This document shows, piece after piece, positions 6,979 through 15,209 of a stretch of 64,000 nt of DNA (the first letter of the stretch is position 1; the number at the start of each line of letters is the position of its first letter). Below the pieces are notes generated by a model. It worked only from the letters and a program-made list of their open reading frames with translations, ran no database searches and was not told where the DNA came from. The position numbers were made by a program, and so were the translations under genes. The stretch comes from Patescibacteria group bacterium (lineage in GTDB: Bacteria > Patescibacteriota > Minisyncoccia > UBA6257 > 2-01-FULL-56-20), in NCBI GenBank assembly GCA_024654525.1, contig JANLHI010000022.1, forward strand, positions 3,931 through 67,930. Direction: 5' to 3'.

Positions 6979-7033
6979 AATAAAAGAAGCCTCACTCATC
7001 GTTAGACAAGCAAGGCTTCCCATGTTTTTTTGC
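6979..7033. repeat. Copy 1 of a 55-bp direct repeat containing a hairpin (GAAGCCT-20 nt-AGGCTTC) flanked by A/T runs. Bidirectional terminator-like.
   Basis: Identical 55 nt at 8366..8420. Sits between convergent M23 peptidase and minus-strand genes. Confidence 0.7.
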
Positions 7034-7054
7034 CTCATTGCATCAGTGCGTGAT

Positions 7055-7432
7055 TCACTTCGCCTTAATGGTGCGAACTTTCACCTCTTGCGCCGCAATG
7101 ACGATGATAACAGGCTCCTCCCACGGATGATTAGGAACAATACCCTCGTTTATCACCCTTTCGAGAAGCTTCGCGTCTCCCGGAATGGAAAACTCCACCT
7201 TCACAGACTGGAAACTTGCAAGTTTCCTGATTTCACCAGAAGTGGGCGTAGAACCCTCAAGCGGGCGAAATTGCTCGACGCCGGGAGCGGACGACCATGC
7301 AACGGAGTCGTAATTTCCATGACGCAAGGCCGAGACCTTTATAACGCCTTCGATAAGCCGACTCGCATGTTCCGGCGATACAAATGTGGCGACACGATAT
7401 ACAGAAGAGAATCCGACCTTTTTAGTGCTCAT
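7055..7432 (-). CDS. Hypothetical protein, possibly CutA1/PII-like fold
   Basis: 125 aa. C-terminal HPWEEPVIIV resembles the CutA HPYEVPEII motif. Weak call. Confidence 0.35.
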   Translation of the reverse strand: MSTKKVGFSSVYRVATFVSPEHASRLIEGVIKVSALRHGNYDSVAWSSAPGVEQFRPLEGSTPTSGEIRKLASFQSVKVEFSIPGDAKLLERVINEGIVPNHPWEEPVIIVIAAQEVKVRTIKAK

Positions 7433-7542
7433 AACTTACTCCGATATGAATATACGGTTGGTTCCGTATTTATGTTGTTAATAGACCCGAAGCGGCAATA
7501 GTACTATTTGCGATTCATATTTGCAAGACCTTATATAATCAC

Positions 7543-7601: not shown

Positions 7602-8291
7602 TTAAGTCTCACAACTAGGAAATCCCCCCCAACTTTTAGGTCTTTCTAAACTTTGAATCCCCACGCGCTTATCACACGAGGGTGTGCCATAGTATAAGCT
7701 TGCATGCCTATCCTTATAAGTACACAAAACAGGAAAACCGTTACGAAGACAAATTCGCGGGGAACGCCTTGAAAGTTTTGGCACCTTATGTCGTGAGGCA
7801 TTGGCAATTATATTATGATGTCGTAACACAGGAAAAACTGAAGCATGGACAATACATTCAAAAACAGTGTATGAAAACCTTCCCTCACACGCAAGCTCCC
7901 GTAGAGATTCAATATGTTTCATATCCATACAAGCTCTTCCATCTTCAACATTAGTCGCAATATAAGGACCATCGGGAACCTGTACAAGATTGCGAATCTT
8001 CCCCGCTTCAAGATCATTCCAACCTCTTACTCCATCATCCCACACCAAAAAAGACATAAGACGACTTAAATCGAGCGGGTCGGGTCGTCTCGGGACAAGG
8101 AGAGTGAGTCCTTTTTCGGGTACGAATTCAGCAAGGCGGCGGAGTTCATCTTCGTCACCTAATCCGATGTCAACCCAAAACGCAATTTGATGATAAAAAA
8201 GTTCGCGTGGGGTTGGGACGAACAAAGATGGTGAATGAGAAATTATTATCTCTTCATACTGCTCAACGGTAATTATGGGAAATGCTTTCAT
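7602..8291 (-). CDS. Hypothetical protein (229 aa), no recognizable domain
   Basis: ORF track. A C7 homopolymer near the 3' end means the C-terminus may be frameshifted. Confidence 0.45.
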   Translation of the reverse strand: MKAFPIITVEQYEEIIISHSPSLFVPTPRELFYHQIAFWVDIGLGDEDELRRLAEFVPEKGLTLLVPRRPDPLDLSRLMSFLVWDDGVRGWNDLEAGKIRNLVQVPDGPYIATNVEDGRACMDMKHIESLRELACEGRFSYTVFECIVHASVFPVLRHHNIIANASRHKVPKLSRRSPRICLRNGFPVLCTYKDRHASLYYGTPSCDKRVGIQSLERPKSWGGFPSCET

Positions 8292-8434: not shown

Positions 8435-10105
8435 CTACTCCCCCGCTTCGGCAAGTTGAATTTCTCCGAGAATCAATTCGTGATCCACTTTTGGTATCAG
8501 CGGTGTCGGTTGCCCGATGGGGGTGTTGGCGGCAAGCGGCGAATATCTCCAACTCACATCGTCCGTGCCTAGATAGGCATTTAGCCTCTCTGTTACACCT
8601 GGGAAGAATGGTGCGGTAAGACGCCGTAAGGCGTCCGCCACCTCCATGCACACTTTGAGTGTTTCGGCGACGTGCGCCTTGTTGCTCTCGATGTTTCTCC
8701 ATGGCGCGCGGTGCTCGATATAGACGTTTGCCTTCCGTGAGAAGTTGAGAATACTCACCAGCGCTTGCCTCAATTCTCCCTTTTCGATGAACGCCCCCAC
8801 TTCTCTTAACGCAGTGGGTGATGCCATCCAAAGAACAACACTTTCATCGCTTACCGGCACACCACTATTGGGCACGGCACCGAAGTACCGATGCGTCATC
8901 GAAAACGTGCGGTTCCAGAAGTTCCCGAGATTTCCAACCAAGTCGGCATTCACCCGTGCTTCGAAGTCATCCCACCGAAATGTACTGTCTTTGCTTTCCG
9001 GCGAGTTGAGTGTGAGGTAGAACCGGATTGCGTCCGGATCGAATTTTGCAAGCGCATTCGGCAACCAAATGCCGATATTCTTGCTCTTCGAAAGCTTCAC
9101 GCCTCCGAAGTTCAAGAACTCGCTTGAGATGATTCTGTTCGGGAGGTGAAGCCCGAGCGCCATGAGCATCGCCGGCCAAATGATGGTGTGAAACGGAATA
9201 TTATCCTTCCCGTGCACGTAATAGTGCACCGCCTCCGGATTATCCCACCATTCGCGCCACGCTTCGGGAAGCCCTTCGGTTTGAAGGGACGCCCATTCGC
9301 GCGAACAAGACAGGTAGCCAATCACCGCTTCAAACCACACATACATCACCTTCTCGGTGAACCCTTCAACCGGCACCGGAATACCCCATGAGAGGTCCCG
9401 CGTAATGGGCCGGTCTTCGAGTCCCTTGGTAAGCCACGCCTCGGTAATTTTCACCGCGTTTTCCCGCCATCCTTCTTTTGACTTCTCCTTCCACTCCGCA
9501 AGATGTTTTTGAAACGCGGGCAGATGGAGATAAAGGTGTGTCGAAGGTTTCCAGACCGGTGTTGCGCCACACGTTCTGCAATGGGGCGCGATAAGATCAT
9601 GCGGGGTATGAAGATGCCCGCATGTATCACACTGATCACCACGCGCACCTTCCACCCCACACTTTGGATTCGGACATTTTCCTTCAATAAACCGATCAGG
9701 AAGCGTGCGATTACAGGTGTCGCACCGCGCCTGCTGTTCTTCACGCGTAACCATGTGGCCATCCGCATGAAGCTTCGCAAACACTTCTTGTGCTACTCCC
9801 TTGTGGAAGGCACCCATTGTCTTTGAGTACAACGAGTAGCTGAAACCGAGTTTCTTGACGAGCGTTTCCACAATCTCATCGTGGTACTGACCCGCCACTT
9901 CTTCCGGTGCTCTTCCTTCTTTGTCCGCGGTCACAAGAATCGGGGTGCCGTGGCAATCACTACCGGAGACAAAAAGCACATCGTCTCCATTTGCACGGTG
10001 ATACCGCGCGAGCACATCCGCCGGCAGTAATGCCGCGACGTGCCCCAAATGCAGCGAGCCATTGACGTATGGCCATGCCGCCGCAACCAATACCTTTTTT
10101 TTCAT
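8435..10105 (-). CDS. metG: Methionyl-tRNA synthetase
   Basis: HLGH (HIGH-class) and KLSKSK (KMSKS) motifs. Zn-knuckle cysteines. 556 aa. RBS GGAGGAA precedes the ATG. Confidence 0.9.
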   Translation of the reverse strand: MKKKVLVAAAWPYVNGSLHLGHVAALLPADVLARYHRANGDDVLFVSGSDCHGTPILVTADKEGRAPEEVAGQYHDEIVETLVKKLGFSYSLYSKTMGAFHKGVAQEVFAKLHADGHMVTREEQQARCDTCNRTLPDRFIEGKCPNPKCGVEGARGDQCDTCGHLHTPHDLIAPHCRTCGATPVWKPSTHLYLHLPAFQKHLAEWKEKSKEGWRENAVKITEAWLTKGLEDRPITRDLSWGIPVPVEGFTEKVMYVWFEAVIGYLSCSREWASLQTEGLPEAWREWWDNPEAVHYYVHGKDNIPFHTIIWPAMLMALGLHLPNRIISSEFLNFGGVKLSKSKNIGIWLPNALAKFDPDAIRFYLTLNSPESKDSTFRWDDFEARVNADLVGNLGNFWNRTFSMTHRYFGAVPNSGVPVSDESVVLWMASPTALREVGAFIEKGELRQALVSILNFSRKANVYIEHRAPWRNIESNKAHVAETLKVCMEVADALRRLTAPFFPGVTERLNAYLGTDDVSWRYSPLAANTPIGQPTPLIPKVDHELILGEIQLAEAGE

Positions 10106-10207
10106 ACTGATTCCTCCATATTAACTTGTTAAGGTCGTGCTGACGGCACGATTTTTCTTTTAAAGAACGCACACGCGTCCCCATTGAAAAACCGCCGAAG
10201 CAAGGAA

Positions 10208-10278
10208 TGACTGGGATGGGACTTGAACCCACAACCGGGTACTTATGAAGCACCTGCTCTACCTTGAGCTACCCAGTC
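10208..10278 (-). tRNA. tRNA-Met (anticodon CAT), elongator type. CCA not encoded.
   Basis: Manual cloverleaf: 7-bp acceptor with G1-C72, U8, D-stem GCTC/GAGC, anticodon loop TTCATAA, T-loop TTCAAGT, 71 nt. Not initiator-like: 1-72 are paired and there is no GGG/CCC run in the anticodon stem. Confidence 0.85.
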
Positions 10279-10388
10279 ATTGCGAAGCAAACGTATCACA
10301 AAATACCATCGCCAACAAGCGGAATGAGAGAACGCCCAACCCGAAGGTTGAGCGTTCAATGATTCTGAAATCCAAACAAACCACATGT

Positions 10389-11330
10389 CTAGACCGCGAC
10401 TAGATCGGCATTCCGCGTGACCCTTGATGCCCATGGCGCCGGAGCTTCCGGACGGTAGTGCCGGAACTGACCCATCCCGGCACCGATCTCTGTCCCGAGA
10501 CTGTGGAACTGGTACACATCCAATCCTCCTTGCGCGCAAATTTGCTCGAACGCATGGTGATTGGCGGATTCCGCGAAACCCGTCTCGGAGACAGGCGAGA
10601 ATCGTGACAGGCGTAGTCGGACAGGTAAACCGTTCAATAGTCCGACTAATTCTTCGGCATGCGCTTCCGCATCGTTGACGTCCTTGAGCAGGACATAATT
10701 TAGGACAACCCTCGTTCGGAGGGTGTCCGCGTATTCCACCGCGGCGGCGAGCACTTCGCCAATCGGGTATTGCCGTGTGATTGGCATCAGTTCCGTTCGC
10801 AGCTCATCGTTCGGCGCATGGAGCGACACCCGAAGCTGGAGGTTCGTCATGCGAAGACCCACGAGTTTGCGAATGCCGGGAGCAATCCCGACGGTCGAGA
10901 TGACAACCCGCATGTCGGGAGAAATGTGCTCCAACGCACTTTTCACCGCGCTGAAATTCAGCAACGGTTCTCCCATTCCGGTGAAAGAGACCTCGAGGCC
11001 TCGCGCCGGATATTGCGTATCGCCGAGCATCCCGTTGACTTGAAGGATAATCTCGTCGCCAGTCAGATTGCGTACGATTCCCTGCAAACCCGTGGCGCAA
11101 AACGCACACTTCATCGCGCAACCGATTTGGCTGGAGATGCACAGCGAATCGTACTCACGAGTTCTGAACTGGAGGTGAGCGCTTTCGACCGTATGTCCGT
11201 CACGGGTAGCCCAAACGTACTTTGTTACTACGCTACTTTCGGCTTTTGCCTGTAAGGACATTCGGCTCGCCGTATTGTTGATGTTATGCCCGCCGATGGT
11301 TTCCATCGAACGAGCGTTTCGCATGCCCAT
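10389..11330 (-). CDS. RlmN/Cfr-family radical SAM enzyme, N-terminally short. The ORF track start at 11429 is probably an over-extension.
   Basis: CISSQIGCAMKCAFCATG (CxxxCxxC), MGMGEPLLN and SLHAPNDELR match RlmN. GC about 62 %. A candidate start, MGMRNAR at 11330, lies inside inverted repeat A. An alternative start is at 11261. Confidence 0.75.
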   Translation of the reverse strand: MGMRNARSMETIGGHNINNTASRMSLQAKAESSVVTKYVWATRDGHTVESAHLQFRTREYDSLCISSQIGCAMKCAFCATGLQGIVRNLTGDEIILQVNGMLGDTQYPARGLEVSFTGMGEPLLNFSAVKSALEHISPDMRVVISTVGIAPGIRKLVGLRMTNLQLRVSLHAPNDELRTELMPITRQYPIGEVLAAAVEYADTLRTRVVLNYVLLKDVNDAEAHAEELVGLLNGLPVRLRLSRFSPVSETGFAESANHHAFEQICAQGGLDVYQFHSLGTEIGAGMGQFRHYRPEAPAPWASRVTRNADLVAV

Positions 11331-11343
11331 AGCATGCCCGTCT
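11310..11343. repeat. Inverted repeat A (34 bp), a perfect reverse complement of 12741..12774
   Basis: AGACGGGCATGCTATGGGCATGCGAAACGCTCGT on the minus strand. Covers -13 to +21 of the radical SAM start codon. Confidence 0.9.
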
Positions 11344-11674
11344 AGAATACATGTGGTATTCATAATTGTTAACGTACTGCGTACGACTCCCTTTATGAAG
11401 AATGATTTCCTATGGGGTCGCGCGTGCAACCCTCACAGCGTCTTACGACATTCATAATAAAGAGCCGTATAGAAATAATAGGAGTGCTTATAGAAAAGCG
11501 CAAACATGGAAACTGTGTGTATCTCGGATATCCTTTATAAATAGCTCATTACCGAACAAAAAAGCTATGTATAACAGCTGAAATGGCAAGCCGGCTAACC
11601 CATAAACATAGATTAGCCGACAAGGCATTATTTTCGAACATAATTCAGTTCTTCGACAGAGCGGTAACCGCTAT

Positions 11675-12457
11675 TCACAAATGATTTTTCATGCGCCCAA
11701 GCATAAATGCATGATCCCTCGGGTCGTACTTGCGCATGTAATATCGACATCTCAACTCTCTTCTCTCAATTACTCTGGGACGAGCGCATAAGCTGCAAAA
11801 CACGAATGGATACATCCTAAAAAAATCTGCAGATACGCGATCCCGAGAAAGGACTGCCGAATACTGGTGGCAACATTTACTTGCACACTCATCGCACACA
11901 GCTTCGTTTGGAGATAATTTATAGGAGTAATCCAACATTGCATCGCCACATTGTTTGCAACGAATTCCGCCCGTAACAACAACCGCCCGTTTTCCTTCAA
12001 AATCAGTTTCACCAAGAAAAACCAGCTTTCTACCACCATAGCGAGCAGTATTATTAAGATCATCAAGCACTTTTTCATCATCTCTCGTACTCCCGCACAG
12101 AAAGATAATGCGCCCTTGTTGCCTCAATTTCGAAAAAGCTTCTCTAAAAACCTCTTCATTATTGAATGTAGCAGTGGTAATTTTCTTACCATCAGTTATA
12201 ACAGTGCCAATTGAGTTCGAATTCAAACTGCAAAGCTCTAAACTGACTTCGTTAAAAGAACCGCCACAAGGATTCTGAAAAAGAACCCAGAGAGATTTCT
12301 CACTACCAGTTACATTGTTCACACACATCCATGAGATATGCTTAATCGAATCTCCCGGCTTGAGTACCTCAACAACAGCGATAATATCTTCAGCCTCACC
12401 CGTTTCAATCGGCACCAATGTATAAGTCGCCGTTTCTTCATCACAGATAATTTTCAT
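11675..12457 (-). CDS. Hypothetical 260-aa protein with C-terminal CxxC..CxxC zinc ribbon and an Arg/Cys-rich basic tail
   Basis: RBS AAGGA 8 nt before ATG 12457 (MKIICDEE). The ORF track version (start 12652) has an implausible N-terminus. About 40 % GC, unlike its flanks. Confidence 0.5.
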   Translation of the reverse strand: MKIICDEETATYTLVPIETGEAEDIIAVVEVLKPGDSIKHISWMCVNNVTGSEKSLWVLFQNPCGGSFNEVSLELCSLNSNSIGTVITDGKKITTATFNNEEVFREAFSKLRQQGRIIFLCGSTRDDEKVLDDLNNTARYGGRKLVFLGETDFEGKRAVVVTGGIRCKQCGDAMLDYSYKLSPNEAVCDECASKCCHQYSAVLSRDRVSADFFRMYPFVFCSLCARPRVIERRELRCRYYMRKYDPRDHAFMLGRMKNHL

Positions 12458-12576
12458 AACATAATTCCTTTTTGAAATTTTCAATTTGCGCAAACGGTGA
12501 AGAATTGAGTGTAGCAAGCAGAACATCAAATGACAACCAGCTACAAGAGAATAAAACGCCAGACTTAGCAACCCCG

Positions 12577-12604
12577 TTGACACACCAAAAAAAAGTACTA
12601 TTAT
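12577..12604 (+). promoter_or_regulatory. Sigma70-like promoter (TTGACA-16-TATTAT) about 150 nt upstream of metK
   Basis: Sequence match only. Confidence 0.45.
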
Positions 12605-12740
12605 CCCCTTACAATCCTTATTGTACGCACCGCAAGGTGCTGCGTGAATCAACTTTGTTGATTTCGTAGGAAATTATTTCTTTACAAGAAGAGTTGCAAC
12701 GTTTAGTTCATTCAAAACTTATGAGTACTCCAAGTACCCA

Positions 12741-12774
12741 AGACGGGCATGCTATGGGCATGCGAAACGCTCGT
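12741..12774. repeat. Inverted repeat B (34 bp)
   Basis: Identical to the reverse complement of 11310..11343. Covers -13 to +21 of the metK start (ATG 12754). Confidence 0.9.
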
Positions 12775-13860
12775 GTTGTGGCGGTTGAATTCGTCACGCC
12801 CGGGCATCCAGATAAGGTCTGCGATCAAATTGGAGACAGTATCCTTGACGCCGCAATCACTCAAGATCCACTTTCGCGAGTTGCCCTTGAGACAACCGGC
12901 GGACATGGTCTCGTGATGGTAAATGGCGAGATGACTACCAAAGCCGACCTCGATATTGTTAGCATCGTGCAAAGAAAGTATGCCGAAATTGGACATGACC
13001 GTTCCATCGAAGTACTCCTTCGCATCGTTCAGCAGTCTCCGGACATTGCACAGGGAGTTGACGACTGTGCTGCCGCTGGCAAAGACAGCGATGAACAAGG
13101 AGCGGGAGATCAGGGAGTCATGGTGGGTTACGCCATCGGTGGCGAGGCAAACTTCATGCCGCAGGCATATAACCTCGCAAAAGCGCTCACTGACCGACTA
13201 ACGGAAGTGAGAGTTCGAGGGATTCTCCCTCACGTAAAGGCTGACGGCAAAAGCCAGGTCACTTTGGTGAACGGCGTTGTCACTCGCGTGACCATCGCCG
13301 CACATCACAGCGACACAGTCGGGCTTGAACAACTGCGCGCAGATATTCTCAAAGATGTCGTGCAGGTGGTCATCCCCGGAATCAACGGCGACGCTGTCAC
13401 CATCAACGGCACCGGAAAGTTCGTGCAAGGCGGTTTCGAAGCTGACGCGGGAACTACCGGTCGCAAATTGGCAGTGGACAATTATGGTCCTCTGGTTGAA
13501 ATCGGCGGCGGATGCTATTCGGGAAAGGATCCTTCGAAAGTGGATCGGAGTGCGGCATATTTCTGCCGGATGGTGGCAAAGGCCATTGTTGCGGGAGGCC
13601 ACGCGAACGAAGCAGTCGTGAAGGTGGGCTACGCCATCGGCGTCGCAAAACCGACATTCCTGTCGGTGCTGACTCCTCTTGATGGAGAAGCGGCCGAAAA
13701 ATTCGAAGCGCATGTGCTGTCGAAGTTCGATTTTCGGCCCAAAGCCATCATCGAACGTCTCGGGCTCCGGAAACCCGACGGCTGGTGCTATGCCGACACT
13801 GCCGCAGCGGGTCACTACGGGGATGACCGGTTCCCGTGGGAAAAAGTGGTGGAGATCTAA
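12754..13860 (+). CDS. metK: S-adenosylmethionine synthetase
   Basis: GHPDKVCDQIGD, GGGCYSGKDPSKVDRSAAY. GC about 62 %. The ORF track start at 12694 is probably over-extended. MGMRNAR..VEFVTPGHPDK aligns with the MetK N-terminus. Confidence 0.9.
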   Translation: MGMRNARVVAVEFVTPGHPDKVCDQIGDSILDAAITQDPLSRVALETTGGHGLVMVNGEMTTKADLDIVSIVQRKYAEIGHDRSIEVLLRIVQQSPDIAQGVDDCAAAGKDSDEQGAGDQGVMVGYAIGGEANFMPQAYNLAKALTDRLTEVRVRGILPHVKADGKSQVTLVNGVVTRVTIAAHHSDTVGLEQLRADILKDVVQVVIPGINGDAVTINGTGKFVQGGFEADAGTTGRKLAVDNYGPLVEIGGGCYSGKDPSKVDRSAAYFCRMVAKAIVAGGHANEAVVKVGYAIGVAKPTFLSVLTPLDGEAAEKFEAHVLSKFDFRPKAIIERLGLRKPDGWCYADTAAAGHYGDDRFPWEKVVEI

Positions 13861-13900
13861 AGATCTCACAGGGTAGGAAGGGGTACCCAGTATGTTTTTA

Positions 13901-13941
13901 ACAAAAAAGTGCCTTCGCTCACGCGAAGGTACTTTAATTTT
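13901..13941. terminator. Bidirectional intrinsic terminator (CCTTCGC-tcac-GCGAAGG flanked by A- and T-runs)
   Basis: Lies between convergent metK (+) and the NUDIX gene (-). Confidence 0.55.
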
Positions 13942-13968
13942 CCCACTAATTTCTCACATGGGAATGCC

Positions 13969-14448
13969 TCAACTCCTTTTCAAAAATATCTTCAACATCT
14001 CAACCTCTATTCCAATCTGCGAATGAAGCGGGGAAGGAAGCTGGTCTAACGCGAACCATCCTATTTCGTCTATCTTCTCCGGGTCACCGTTCTTAACTTT
14101 TGCAGGGTCAACCAACACCCAATGCATGTTTTTTACCCAATGAGTAGACAATCCGTTGTGCGTGCGGAGTACATTTTTTGTAGTCACATATTCGATTTCA
14201 AGCGGTACCACGCCGTATTCCTCCAGAACCTCGCGTGCCACCGTGTCTTCAAACGTTTCGCCAAATTCCATCGCTCCTCCGCCACAATCCCATACATCCT
14301 GTTCATCGCGACACTTTTTGCTCCGCTTGTGCATAAGTATGCGCCCTTCCGTGTCATAGCACCAAAACACGCAGTTCACACCGATATAATCAACACCGCG
14401 CTTCATATCCCGCTTTTGATATTCCGGAGATTTCTGATCGGGAATCAT
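13969..14448 (-). CDS. NUDIX hydrolase
   Basis: Nudix box GGGAMEFGETFEDTVAREVLEEYG. Confidence 0.85.
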   Translation of the reverse strand: MIPDQKSPEYQKRDMKRGVDYIGVNCVFWCYDTEGRILMHKRSKKCRDEQDVWDCGGGAMEFGETFEDTVAREVLEEYGVVPLEIEYVTTKNVLRTHNGLSTHWVKNMHWVLVDPAKVKNGDPEKIDEIGWFALDQLPSPLHSQIGIEVEMLKIFLKRS

Positions 14449-14450
14449 GG

Positions 14451-15209
14451 CTATTCAACCCTCTTCGACTGATGCTCTTTCAAAAATCCTGAAAATCCCT
14501 TTATCATCTCCAACGGCACCGTGAATACTACTGTGTTTGACTGATCCGAAGAGATATCATTGATGGATTGCAATGTGCGAAGGTGAAGCGCTCCGTCCAC
14601 CGCAGAGAGTATCTTTGCCGCTTCCGCCATGTTTTGAGCCGCGGCAAGCTCCCCTTCTGAATTGATAATAACCGCGCGTTTTTCCCGTTCCGCTTCCGCT
14701 TGTTTCGCAATCGTTCGCTCCATGTCCGCCGGTAAACTTACATCTTTAAGCTCCACATTACTCACTTTAAGTCCCCATTCATCCGTCTCTTTGTCCACGA
14801 TTTCACGAATTCGGTCAGCAAGCTTTTCCCGATTTGCCAGAAGTTCATCTAAACTTACTTCCCCCACGATGTTCCGCATGGTAGTTTGTGCAAATTGAGA
14901 AATTGCATAGTAAAAATCCTGCACTTCAAGAATCGCTTTTTCCGCGGACTGCACACGATAATAAATCACCGCGTTTACCGTGACCGATACATTGTCGCGC
15001 GTGATTGCTTTTTGATCCGGCACATCCACGGCTTTGATACGCATATCCACCTTCTGATAGCTTTGAAACACGGGAATTACGATCCGCCATCCCGGCTCCA
15101 TTACATTACTGAAACGCCCCATCGTAAATTTCAAACCACGTTCATACTGATTCACCTGTCGCAAGCTTGCAATCAGAAGCACAACAATTATTGATATATA
15201 TATCTCCAT
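14451..15209 (-). CDS. SPFH/band-7 (stomatin/HflC-like) membrane protein
   Basis: N-terminal TM helix followed by an SPFH-like region. Start chosen at MEIYISII (15209). The ORF track extends it to 15278. Confidence 0.8.
   Translation of the reverse strand: MEIYISIIVVLLIASLRQVNQYERGLKFTMGRFSNVMEPGWRIVIPVFQSYQKVDMRIKAVDVPDQKAITRDNVSVTVNAVIYYRVQSAEKAILEVQDFYYAISQFAQTTMRNIVGEVSLDELLANREKLADRIREIVDKETDEWGLKVSNVELKDVSLPADMERTIAKQAEAEREKRAVIINSEGELAAAQNMAEAAKILSAVDGALHLRTLQSINDISSDQSNTVVFTVPLEMIKGFSGFLKEHQSKRVE

Follow-up and report, generated by a model that had tools for sequence, protein, structure and literature searches.

How could an enzyme of the RlmN/Cfr fold work if the cysteine that carries the methyl group in this family were replaced by methionine? 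The question is raised by a gene at 10389-11330 (minus strand) of a 64,000-nt stretch of contig JANLHI010000022.1 from a Patescibacteria group bacterium (assembly GCA_024654525.1, positions 3,931 to 67,930); the whole of this stretch was analyzed and is here called the window. The gene product, designated P0001, is an intact radical S-adenosylmethionine (SAM) enzyme of the RlmN/Cfr (class A methylase) fold that keeps the SAM motifs, and it falls in a rare branch of short family members that lack the N-terminal HhH2 domain. The explanation that we favor, tentatively and at slightly less than an even chance, is that P0001 represents a repurposed class A-type radical SAM enzyme that would work without the Cys-methyl ping-pong, with Met mimicking S-methylcysteine and with a substrate other than rRNA.

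In the RlmN/Cfr cycle, SAM methylates a C-terminal Cys, and a second SAM yields a 5'-deoxyadenosyl (5'-dA) radical that takes a hydrogen from the Cys-S-CH3 group; the methylene radical adds to C2 or C8 of adenine, a second Cys deprotonates the adduct, and the C-S bond fragments (PMC13001441). The RlmN variant C355A is inactive in vivo (PMC11194073). Challand et al. found that the methyl on Cys338 of Cfr switches the enzyme to reductive SAM cleavage, and Cfr C338A, which binds SAM equally, shows neither cluster oxidation nor 5'-dA (PMC3702613). The gene and its corresponding catalytic features are as follows.

10389-11330, minus strand: RlmN/Cfr-fold radical SAM open reading frame (ORF), encoding P0001, 313 aa from the ATG at 11330
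11139-11141, minus strand: Cys equivalent to the crosslink-resolving C118 of RlmN and C105 of Cfr, retained in P0001
11097-11120, minus strand: CX3CX2C motif CAMKCAFC, ligating the 4Fe-4S cluster
10473-10475, minus strand: Met codon ATG at the position of the methyl-carrying Cys, C355 of RlmN and C338 of Cfr (by HMMER, MAFFT, and translation)

The ORF lies within a larger open frame on the same strand (10389-11429), and two other starts can be considered, 11306 (the NCBI start, giving 305 aa) and 11261 (MSLQAK), the latter matching the N-terminus usually seen in the short clade. When 5.8 billion proteins were searched, an identical protein was found in NCBI, MCR4328347.1, "MAG: radical SAM protein [Patescibacteria group bacterium]". 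In Pfam, P0001 matches Radical_SAM PF04055 alone (44.5 bits versus a gathering cutoff of 29.5), and the scan gave no match to PF21016, the RlmN N-terminal HhH2 domain. The top NCBIfam model is RlmN TIGR00048, with 217.6 bits under a cutoff of 290, while the Cfr models TIGR04432 and NF000424 score 158.8 versus 550 and 165.2 versus 530 bits, respectively. Against PDB sequences, phmmer aligns residues 33 to 291 of P0001 with 6fz6 (E 6.4e-46), followed by Cfr 9p0p (E 5e-37) and E. coli RlmN 3rf9 (E 3.5e-36).

An AlphaFold2 (AF2) model built from a 32-sequence alignment has a predicted local distance difference test (pLDDT) score of 89.6 overall and about 90 near the Met; three strands precede the radical SAM core. 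Its best PDB matches in Foldseek are 6fz6 (template modeling [TM] score, 0.85), 5hr7, 3rfa, and 9p0p, so that the overall RlmN/Cfr fold is present, with both its beta'1-3 extension and its C-terminal loop. The RlmN/Cfr-family identity proposed from the sequence in the initial annotation is thus borne out by both the phmmer match to 6fz6 and the model. So is its claim that the N-terminal domain is missing: besides the lack of PF21016, 70 residues (start 11330) or 62 residues (NCBI start) precede the first cluster Cys, versus 124 in E. coli RlmN, and the phmmer alignment begins at about RlmN residue 79 to 95. With 150 canonical N-terminal domains as queries, tblastn found no match in the 64-kb window, and P0001 is the only RlmN-like gene within it.

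All three PDB alignments pair P0001 "SLCISSQIGCAMKCAFC" with "TLCVSSQVGCALECKFC", showing that C118, C125, C129, and C132 are kept; the translation of 11097-11141 (minus strand) reads CISSQIGCAMKCAFC, and SLCISSQ stands opposite TLCVSSQ, retaining the C118 equivalent. At the other end of the protein, the same three alignments place "EIGAGMGQF" opposite "DIDAACGQL", with Met on C355, and GAGMGQF is read by direct translation at 10464-10484 (minus strand). HMMER, MAFFT, and fold comparison uphold the Cys355-to-Met assignment, which had first been made from the sequence alone. Neither an alternative Cys nor a codon error was found: the last 48 residues hold no further Cys, and four other proteins share the Met, encoded by ATG in the three whose DNA was checked. 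Two details called for correction. The motif given as MGMGEPLLN actually reads TGMGEPLLN, and the "at least two" substitutions thought necessary are three, because TGY and ATG differ at every codon position.

Across 368 family members aligned with MAFFT, the C355 column holds Cys in 363 and Met in 5 (P0001 to P0005), with nothing else. At the C118 column, 366 members of the same alignment have Cys, while P0005 has Gly and one fragment is gapped. A check for homologues with the same substitution had been proposed, and the four found (P0002 to P0005) are metagenomic, with about 50 to 55% identity to P0001. Coming from separate samples, each of the five is a single-member cluster, and mutual identities range from 49 to 61%. 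In all four Met-type loci for which DNA is available the codon is ATG, versus TGT or TGC in Cys-type relatives. The presence of Met in five independently assembled proteins argues that the codon at 10473-10475 is no sequencing error. In addition, no cluster or SAM-motif residue differs among the five; these residues include 31 columns that do not vary among 32 forms, short and canonical, and the retention of these motifs at ~50% identity argues against decay.

The short relatives of P0001 recovered from the 5.8 billion proteins are 277 to 321 aa long and lack PF21016; a second search, with a profile of the closest five, added further short forms. In a hidden Markov model (HMM) search of 1.84 billion cluster representatives, the P0001 group is a single representative with 442 bits, the next match has 345 bits, and canonical RlmN starts from about 265 bits. 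To establish how the Met proteins are related, a neighbor-joining tree was generated with 200 bootstraps. P0001 to P0004 are monophyletic in 90.5% of bootstraps, and all five Met proteins come together in 1%. P0005 instead groups with Cys-type P0006, P0121, P0013, and P0010 in 83%; its identity to Cys-type P0006 is 67%, compared with 49 to 61% to the other Met proteins, and it has none of the other signatures of P0001 to P0004. On the basis of these bootstraps, Cys was probably replaced by Met in two independent events. Two gains, each requiring three nucleotide changes, at a column where no third residue occurs would point to selection for Met itself and not to mere loss of Cys.

Further relatives were sought in several ways. 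A scan of GTDB genomes with the Met-subclade patterns MGE[PA]LLNF and [RQ][IV]SLHAPN[DN] was dominated by gammaproteobacterial canonical RlmN (35 to 43% identity), with no short-clade locus among the matches listed. The codon pattern for YQFxxLGx[DE]IxxGMG matched three high-GC metagenomic contigs, in an ABC-transporter region, and these matches were dismissed as chance; the same pattern had no match in viral contigs. Viral contigs searched with the short-clade alignment yielded only relatives of at most 38% identity and no close short-clade kin. In the literature, with subscription journals poorly covered, we found no paper on a short RlmN-like branch or a natural C355M variant, no class A methylase in a biosynthetic or defense context, and nothing relevant on DUF6687.

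The changes in P0001 extend beyond the methyl-carrying position. To place them, we compared 297 long RlmN forms with a short clade defined as 35 members at least 38.5% identical to P0001, anchoring the E. coli RlmN residue numbers on the PDB alignment.

10980-10982, minus strand: Thr for the Met of F-M-GMGEP, specific to P0001 to P0004
10611-10613, minus strand: Arg for E. coli N307 (Cfr N288); Lys or Arg in 80% of the 35 short-clade members
10596-10598, minus strand: Ser for the Asn of the "NP" motif (about 99% conserved), specific to P0001 to P0004
10536-10538, minus strand: Cys at the position of E. coli L334, found in 69% of the 35 short-clade members; Leu in 91% of canonical RlmN
10506-10508, minus strand: Phe for E. 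coli R344 (Cfr R327); Phe in 69% of the 35 short-clade members, plus some Trp

The Met of F-M-GMGEP is present in 100% of the 297 long forms and of the 12 closest Cys-type short forms, and in 84% across 57 other short forms. P0005 retains both this Met and the Asn of NP but has lost C118. In this protein (locus L001, 1176-2069), Gly replaces C118 in "DSLGISSQ"; it thus has neither of the mechanistic RlmN cysteines, and its cluster and SAM motifs are intact.

Other replacements are shared by the short clade at large, and two of them affect positions that in Cfr contact the RNA. The equivalents of R344, in the C-terminal loop, and N307 are Arg and Asn in 100% of the 297 long forms, and in the Cfr-rRNA cryo-electron microscopy structure R327 contacts the ribose O4' of A2503 and N288 the phosphate (PMC13001441). 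The clade also shifts E278 (97% in long forms) to Asn, V174 to Ser, and I309 to Ser, and the Cys at 10536-10538 occurs in its Met and Cys types alike. The HhH2 N-terminal domain that is missing here is a positively charged rRNA-binding surface and is required for rRNA binding (PMC13001441). The aligned core has a median isoelectric point of 6.7 in the Met types and 6.35 in the 57 other short forms versus 8.6 in the 297 long forms. As judged from these comparisons, the short branch appears to have lost much of the RNA-binding equipment of RlmN/Cfr and to have an altered sugar/phosphate pocket.

The surroundings of the gene are ordinary cellular DNA, with genes for a P-type ATPase, Nramp, BacA, and glycosyltransferases in the window. 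Its immediate neighbors are as follows.

8435-10105, minus strand: methionyl-tRNA synthetase (MetRS), downstream of the radical SAM gene on the same strand; GC content at third codon positions (GC3) of 0.596
10207-10279, minus strand: tRNA with anticodon CAT (tRNA-Met), between the radical SAM gene and MetRS
11675-12469 (listed also as 11675-12652), minus strand: orphan Cys-rich "Zn-ribbon" ORF, between the radical SAM gene and metK; GC3 of 0.370
12754-13860, plus strand: metK (SAM synthetase), divergent from the radical SAM gene; GC3 of 0.575
13969-14448, minus strand: NUDIX hydrolase, adjoining metK

The tRNA has a G1-C72 pair and an anticodon stem without GGG/CCC and is for that reason not an initiator; it could be an elongator tRNA-Met or a tRNA-Ile2. 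The orphan ORF carries several CxxC pairs; Pfam, NCBIfam, PADLOC, and PHROGs all gave no match for it, and the related loci contain no homologue. It probably lies outside the system. Of the two co-occurrences that the initial annotation wished to see checked, that with the Zn-ribbon gene was rejected, with no counterpart in any other locus, while that with metK was recovered in two of the four Met-type loci. Farther off, no family in PADLOC, PHROGs, or NCBIfam was matched by the ORFs at 7602-8291 and 7055-7432, and the long ORFs 7022-7501 (plus strand) and 7055-7432 (minus strand) overlap almost entirely on opposite strands.

The divergent metK gene shares more than its position with the radical SAM gene.

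11310-11370, minus strand: copy of the metK 5' region, before and over the radical SAM start, with a 34-nt core at 11310-11343
12714-12774, plus strand: the matching metK 5' region, with its core at 12741-12774; a strong promoter-like site lies upstream, at 12577-12604

The two form a 61-nt inverted repeat, whose 34-nt core AGACGGGCATGCTATGGGCATGCGAAACGCTCGT is 100% identical and spans the start codons, and both ORFs start MGMRNAR. When 11262-11480 (minus strand) is compared with 12604-12822 (plus strand), the alignable 5' region comes to about 130 nt, with a TATTAT box at the same relative upstream position; in metK an 11/12 promoter match has this box as its -10 element. The N-terminus of P0001 (..SMETIGGH) looks as if it had diverged, in frame, from a copy of that of MetK (..VVAVEFVTPGH). 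From this likeness we infer that the metK promoter, leader, and start region were duplicated to a place ahead of the radical SAM gene, and a duplicated metK 5' region would imply co-expression. Around the start codons lies a GCAUGCU/GGCAUGC hairpin formed by the core, with a third GGGCAU downstream; the z-scores of the leader folds are weak (-2.7 and -0.4). The element may be a novel leader or operator responding to Met or SAM, or nothing more than a promoter and start region that were duplicated. Rfam 15 run over 9500-14500 with E up to 1 gave the tRNA and weak chance matches only, with no riboswitch; on 11 related loci it found nothing, and the core motif was not found in any of 128 loci searched.

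Composition also sets the radical SAM gene and its two Met-related neighbors apart. Among 48 window genes (mean GC3, 0.458; standard deviation, 0.062), the top three are the radical SAM gene (0.640), MetRS (0.596), and MetK (0.575), and the lowest include the ORFs at 11675-12469 (0.370) and 7602-8291 (0.322). This suggests that the MetRS-radical SAM-MetK trio is compositionally foreign and that the AT-rich insertion came later; the GC3 of the trio fits joint acquisition, to which high expression could contribute.

The other Met-type genes are found in related but not identical settings. The locus of P0003 (L003) reads MetK - MetRS - CbiT - radical SAM - PfkB, with NB-ARC/STAND genes on the flanks; that of P0004 (L091) reads radical SAM - PfkB; and that of P0005 (L001) reads radical SAM - NUDIX - 188-aa ORF - PfkB, with a TIR_2 gene nearby. 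MetK and MetRS thus stand beside the Met-type gene in two of four loci, the window and L003. The PfkB kinases of the other three loci are mutual orthologues with 47 to 53% identity, and PfkB adjoins the Met-type gene in three of four loci versus none of nine Cys-type loci (Fisher p of about 0.014, the loci being phylogenetically non-independent), a link that is suggestive. The NUDIX gene of L001 is unrelated to that of the window. We considered whether the window and L003 might hold a recently co-transferred MetRS-MetK-radical SAM module; this was ruled out, as their MetRS proteins are 27% and their MetK proteins 40% identical. At such distances there is no shared mobile module, and the association would be convergent or ancient.

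Cys-type members of the short branch lie in neighborhoods of other kinds. In three unrelated loci (L007, 8001-14685; L094, 2174-8849; L095, 2000-10078) the gene adjoins that for leucyl-tRNA synthetase (LeuRS), along with a recurring set of Methyltransf_21, NTP_transferase, epimerase, PIG-L, DUF6687, and Rieske genes; genes for MetRS and a sulfotransferase are additionally present in L007, and in L094 the insertion point of the cassette lies between leuS and lptE-holA. This LeuRS-linked sugar-nucleotide cassette may represent an aminoacyl-adenylate-mimic or tRNA-linked pathway. In L097 (190-4799), a Cys-type short radical SAM gene lies behind genes for an adenosine-deaminase family member and an NB-ARC/TPR STAND protein, all on one strand with gaps of about 55 to 60 nt, an arrangement that looks like a conflict system but has no counterpart among the PADLOC systems; a TPR protein gene also lies directly upstream of P0006, the closest Cys-type relative. 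In L004 (2698-11591) and L093 (8001-16915), Cys-type short genes stand beside genes for a B12-binding radical SAM protein and giant nonribosomal peptide synthetases (NRPS). One of the two also has PhyH and MFS and the other citrate synthase, Ldh, a UbiE-type methyltransferase, and an aminotransferase, and both look like biosynthetic gene clusters. The neighborhoods of the short branch are unlike the housekeeping setting of rlmN, and many of the neighbors act on adenine nucleotides or aminoacyl-adenylates (kinase, NUDIX, adenosine deaminase, MetK, and aminoacyl-tRNA synthetases). Among neighbors of the radical SAM genes, PADLOC gave generic domain matches only (ADA, TIR, NUDIX, and TPR).

Taken together, these observations can be arranged into a working scheme. 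P0001 would be unable to run the canonical Cys-methyl cycle. It would still bind and reductively cleave SAM, with the Met thioether sitting where S-methylcysteine would be; Met is the sole proteinogenic residue with a CH3-S group. The active site would then be permanently "methylated" and radical generating, with the self-methylation step skipped, and the 5'-dA radical would attack either the Met methyl or the substrate directly. An adenine nucleoside- or nucleotide-type small molecule, an aminoacyl-adenylate, or a tRNA-linked species would be a more likely substrate than A2503 of 23S rRNA; a non-rRNA substrate is favored because HhH2 is absent, the core is less basic, and the equivalents of R327 and N288 are replaced. 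Lastly, the enzyme would be expressed alongside SAM synthesis, its 5' end being putatively derived from the metK promoter, leader, and start by duplication and divergence.

Several points weigh against this scheme. C118 is kept in four of the five Met proteins, although it would be superfluous if the crosslink never forms, while P0005 lacks both cysteines. The inference of two gains comes from neighbor-joining bootstraps and not from maximum likelihood, and we know of no short-branch member with a known activity, substrate, or product. PfkB, present in the other Met-type loci, is not present in the window; its family is widespread, with hundreds of matches of ~45% identity in genomes without the radical SAM gene, and the genes may be adjacent through inherited synteny and not for functional reasons. 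The MetRS and MetK proteins of the two loci that link them to the Met-type gene are as distant as given above, the high GC3 of the window copies could reflect expression level rather than origin, and the radical SAM gene of L003 is compositionally native-looking. In PADLOC-DB v2, neither P0001 nor P0013 matches any known defense system.

Among the rival explanations, an artefact through misalignment, sequencing or assembly error, or a wrong ORF call has next to no chance of being right: three independent alignment methods agree, ATG differs from any Cys codon at all three positions, the Met is common to five proteins from different samples, and the C-terminal 48 residues offer no alternative Cys. 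Unlikely, but to be taken more seriously, is that P0001 still acts as a tRNA or rRNA methyltransferase of the 2-methyladenosine (m2A) type, with another Cys (e.g., that at 10536-10538) or a partner in place of C355 and with RNA recognition provided in trans or via the beta-extension. The fold, the beta'1-3 extension, and the kept C118 would all be expected of such an enzyme, the gene adjoins tRNA-Met and MetRS on the same strand, Cys-type relatives stand beside LeuRS or MetRS in L007, L094, and L095, and the short clade does have a new conserved Cys. That Cys, however, is also found in Cys-type members and so did not arise as a substitute for C355; HhH2 is missing with no separate copy in the window, the core is acidic to neutral where canonical forms are basic, the residues contacting ribose and phosphate are replaced, and P0001 falls under all RlmN/Cfr equivalog cutoffs. 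A dead or decaying RlmN remnant, or a SAM-binding regulatory or scaffold protein, strikes us as very improbable. The essential Cys is lost, the corresponding Ala variants of RlmN and Cfr are inactive and fail to cleave SAM, respectively, and the group is rare, with five single-member clusters; yet the ORFs are intact in five independent assemblies, the cluster Cys and the 31 family-invariant columns are kept at ~50% pairwise identity, Met is invariant in the group, and the gene sits under a copy of the metK 5' region.

The remaining rival keeps methyl transfer and makes Met a renewable Met/homocysteine carrier: the 5'-dA radical would take a hydrogen from the S-methyl of Met, the thiomethylene radical would add to C2 or C8 of adenine, C118 would resolve the adduct and leave homocysteine, and SAM would turn this back into Met by re-methylation. 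The protein would then remain a methylase, pre-charged by translation for its first turnover. Met is S-methyl-homocysteine and bears the same CH3-S group as the methylated Cys, it alone replaces Cys at this column and was probably gained twice, C118 is kept in four of five Met proteins, the Cys338 methyl gates radical generation in Cfr, and the gene is linked to metK; the change of Met to Thr in xGMGEP might even make room for the longer side chain. Against this, the chemistry is without precedent, the Met side chain is one methylene longer, and the path from Cys to Met crosses intermediates that are neither, implying that the Cys function was dispensable at some stage. Because P0005 has neither cysteine, methylene transfer from Met with C118 as the resolving residue cannot be general. 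We regard this carrier as quite doubtful. Just as much of a long shot is the more ambitious form of our own proposal, in which the protein Met is a genetically encoded S-methyl-thioether cofactor (either a built-in mimic of methylated Cys that keeps the enzyme switched to radical generation or, in the stronger version, both hydrogen source and methylene donor, cycling between Met and homocysteine with re-methylation by SAM); the enzyme would act on an adenine nucleoside- or nucleotide-type substrate and not on rRNA and would have evolved twice from Cys-type ancestors.

The repurposed, Met-bearing enzyme that we favor would surprise the radical SAM enzymologist and offers a direct experimental handle on methyl-thioether gating. 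A natural Cys-to-Met lineage bears on how the methyl-thioether gates SAM cleavage and on whether the RlmN/Cfr fold supports other chemistry or substrates. Likewise, the contexts of the short branch (NRPS, tRNA synthetase, and STAND) suggest unexplored adenine C-H functionalization outside ribosome modification.

How, then, does P0001 compare with known enzymes? To our knowledge, RlmN and Cfr are the only characterized class A radical SAM methylases. With E. coli RlmN (3RFA and 5HR7), which makes m2A2503 and m2A37, P0001 shares the partial TIM barrel (Foldseek E 1e-26 to 1e-27; TM score, 0.81 to 0.84), CX3CX2C, GMGEP, SLHAPND, the C118-type Cys, and the G-x-G-Q of the C-terminal loop. It differs in having only about 30% identity, in lacking HhH2, and in the replacement of C355 by Met, R344 by Phe, N307 by Arg, and E278 by Asn. 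Cfr (9P0P), the m8A2503 methylase, is of the same fold and mechanism class and has Ser at the S153 position, as in the short clade; compared with it, P0001 has Met for C338, replaced equivalents of R327 and N288, no N-terminal domain, and scores far under the cutoffs. In Cfr the methylene of the methylated Cys lies 4.4 A from C5' of SAM. The best match of solved structure, the radical SAM methyltransferase of Sphaerobacter thermophilus (6FZ6, 32% identity to P0001), is, unlike P0001, full length (366 aa), with an N-terminal domain and the AACGQL Cys. P0001 therefore fails the family tests of methyl-carrying Cys, N-terminal domain, curated cutoffs, and ribose- and phosphate-contact residues, which makes annotation as a 23S rRNA m2A2503 methyltransferase unwarranted and agrees with the original view that it is not a canonical m2A synthase.

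The nearest comparison is with the Cys-type short proteins (P0006 to P0016, P0121 to P0135, and others), which have the same short architecture and 41 to 51% identity to P0001. IMG labels the short proteins "23S rRNA (adenine2503-C2)-methyltransferase", a label that is probably wrong for them. They share with P0001 the Phe or Trp for R344, the Lys or Arg for N307, the Asn for E278, and the extra Cys; unlike P0001, they keep the methyl-carrying Cys, and in nine loci they have no PfkB.

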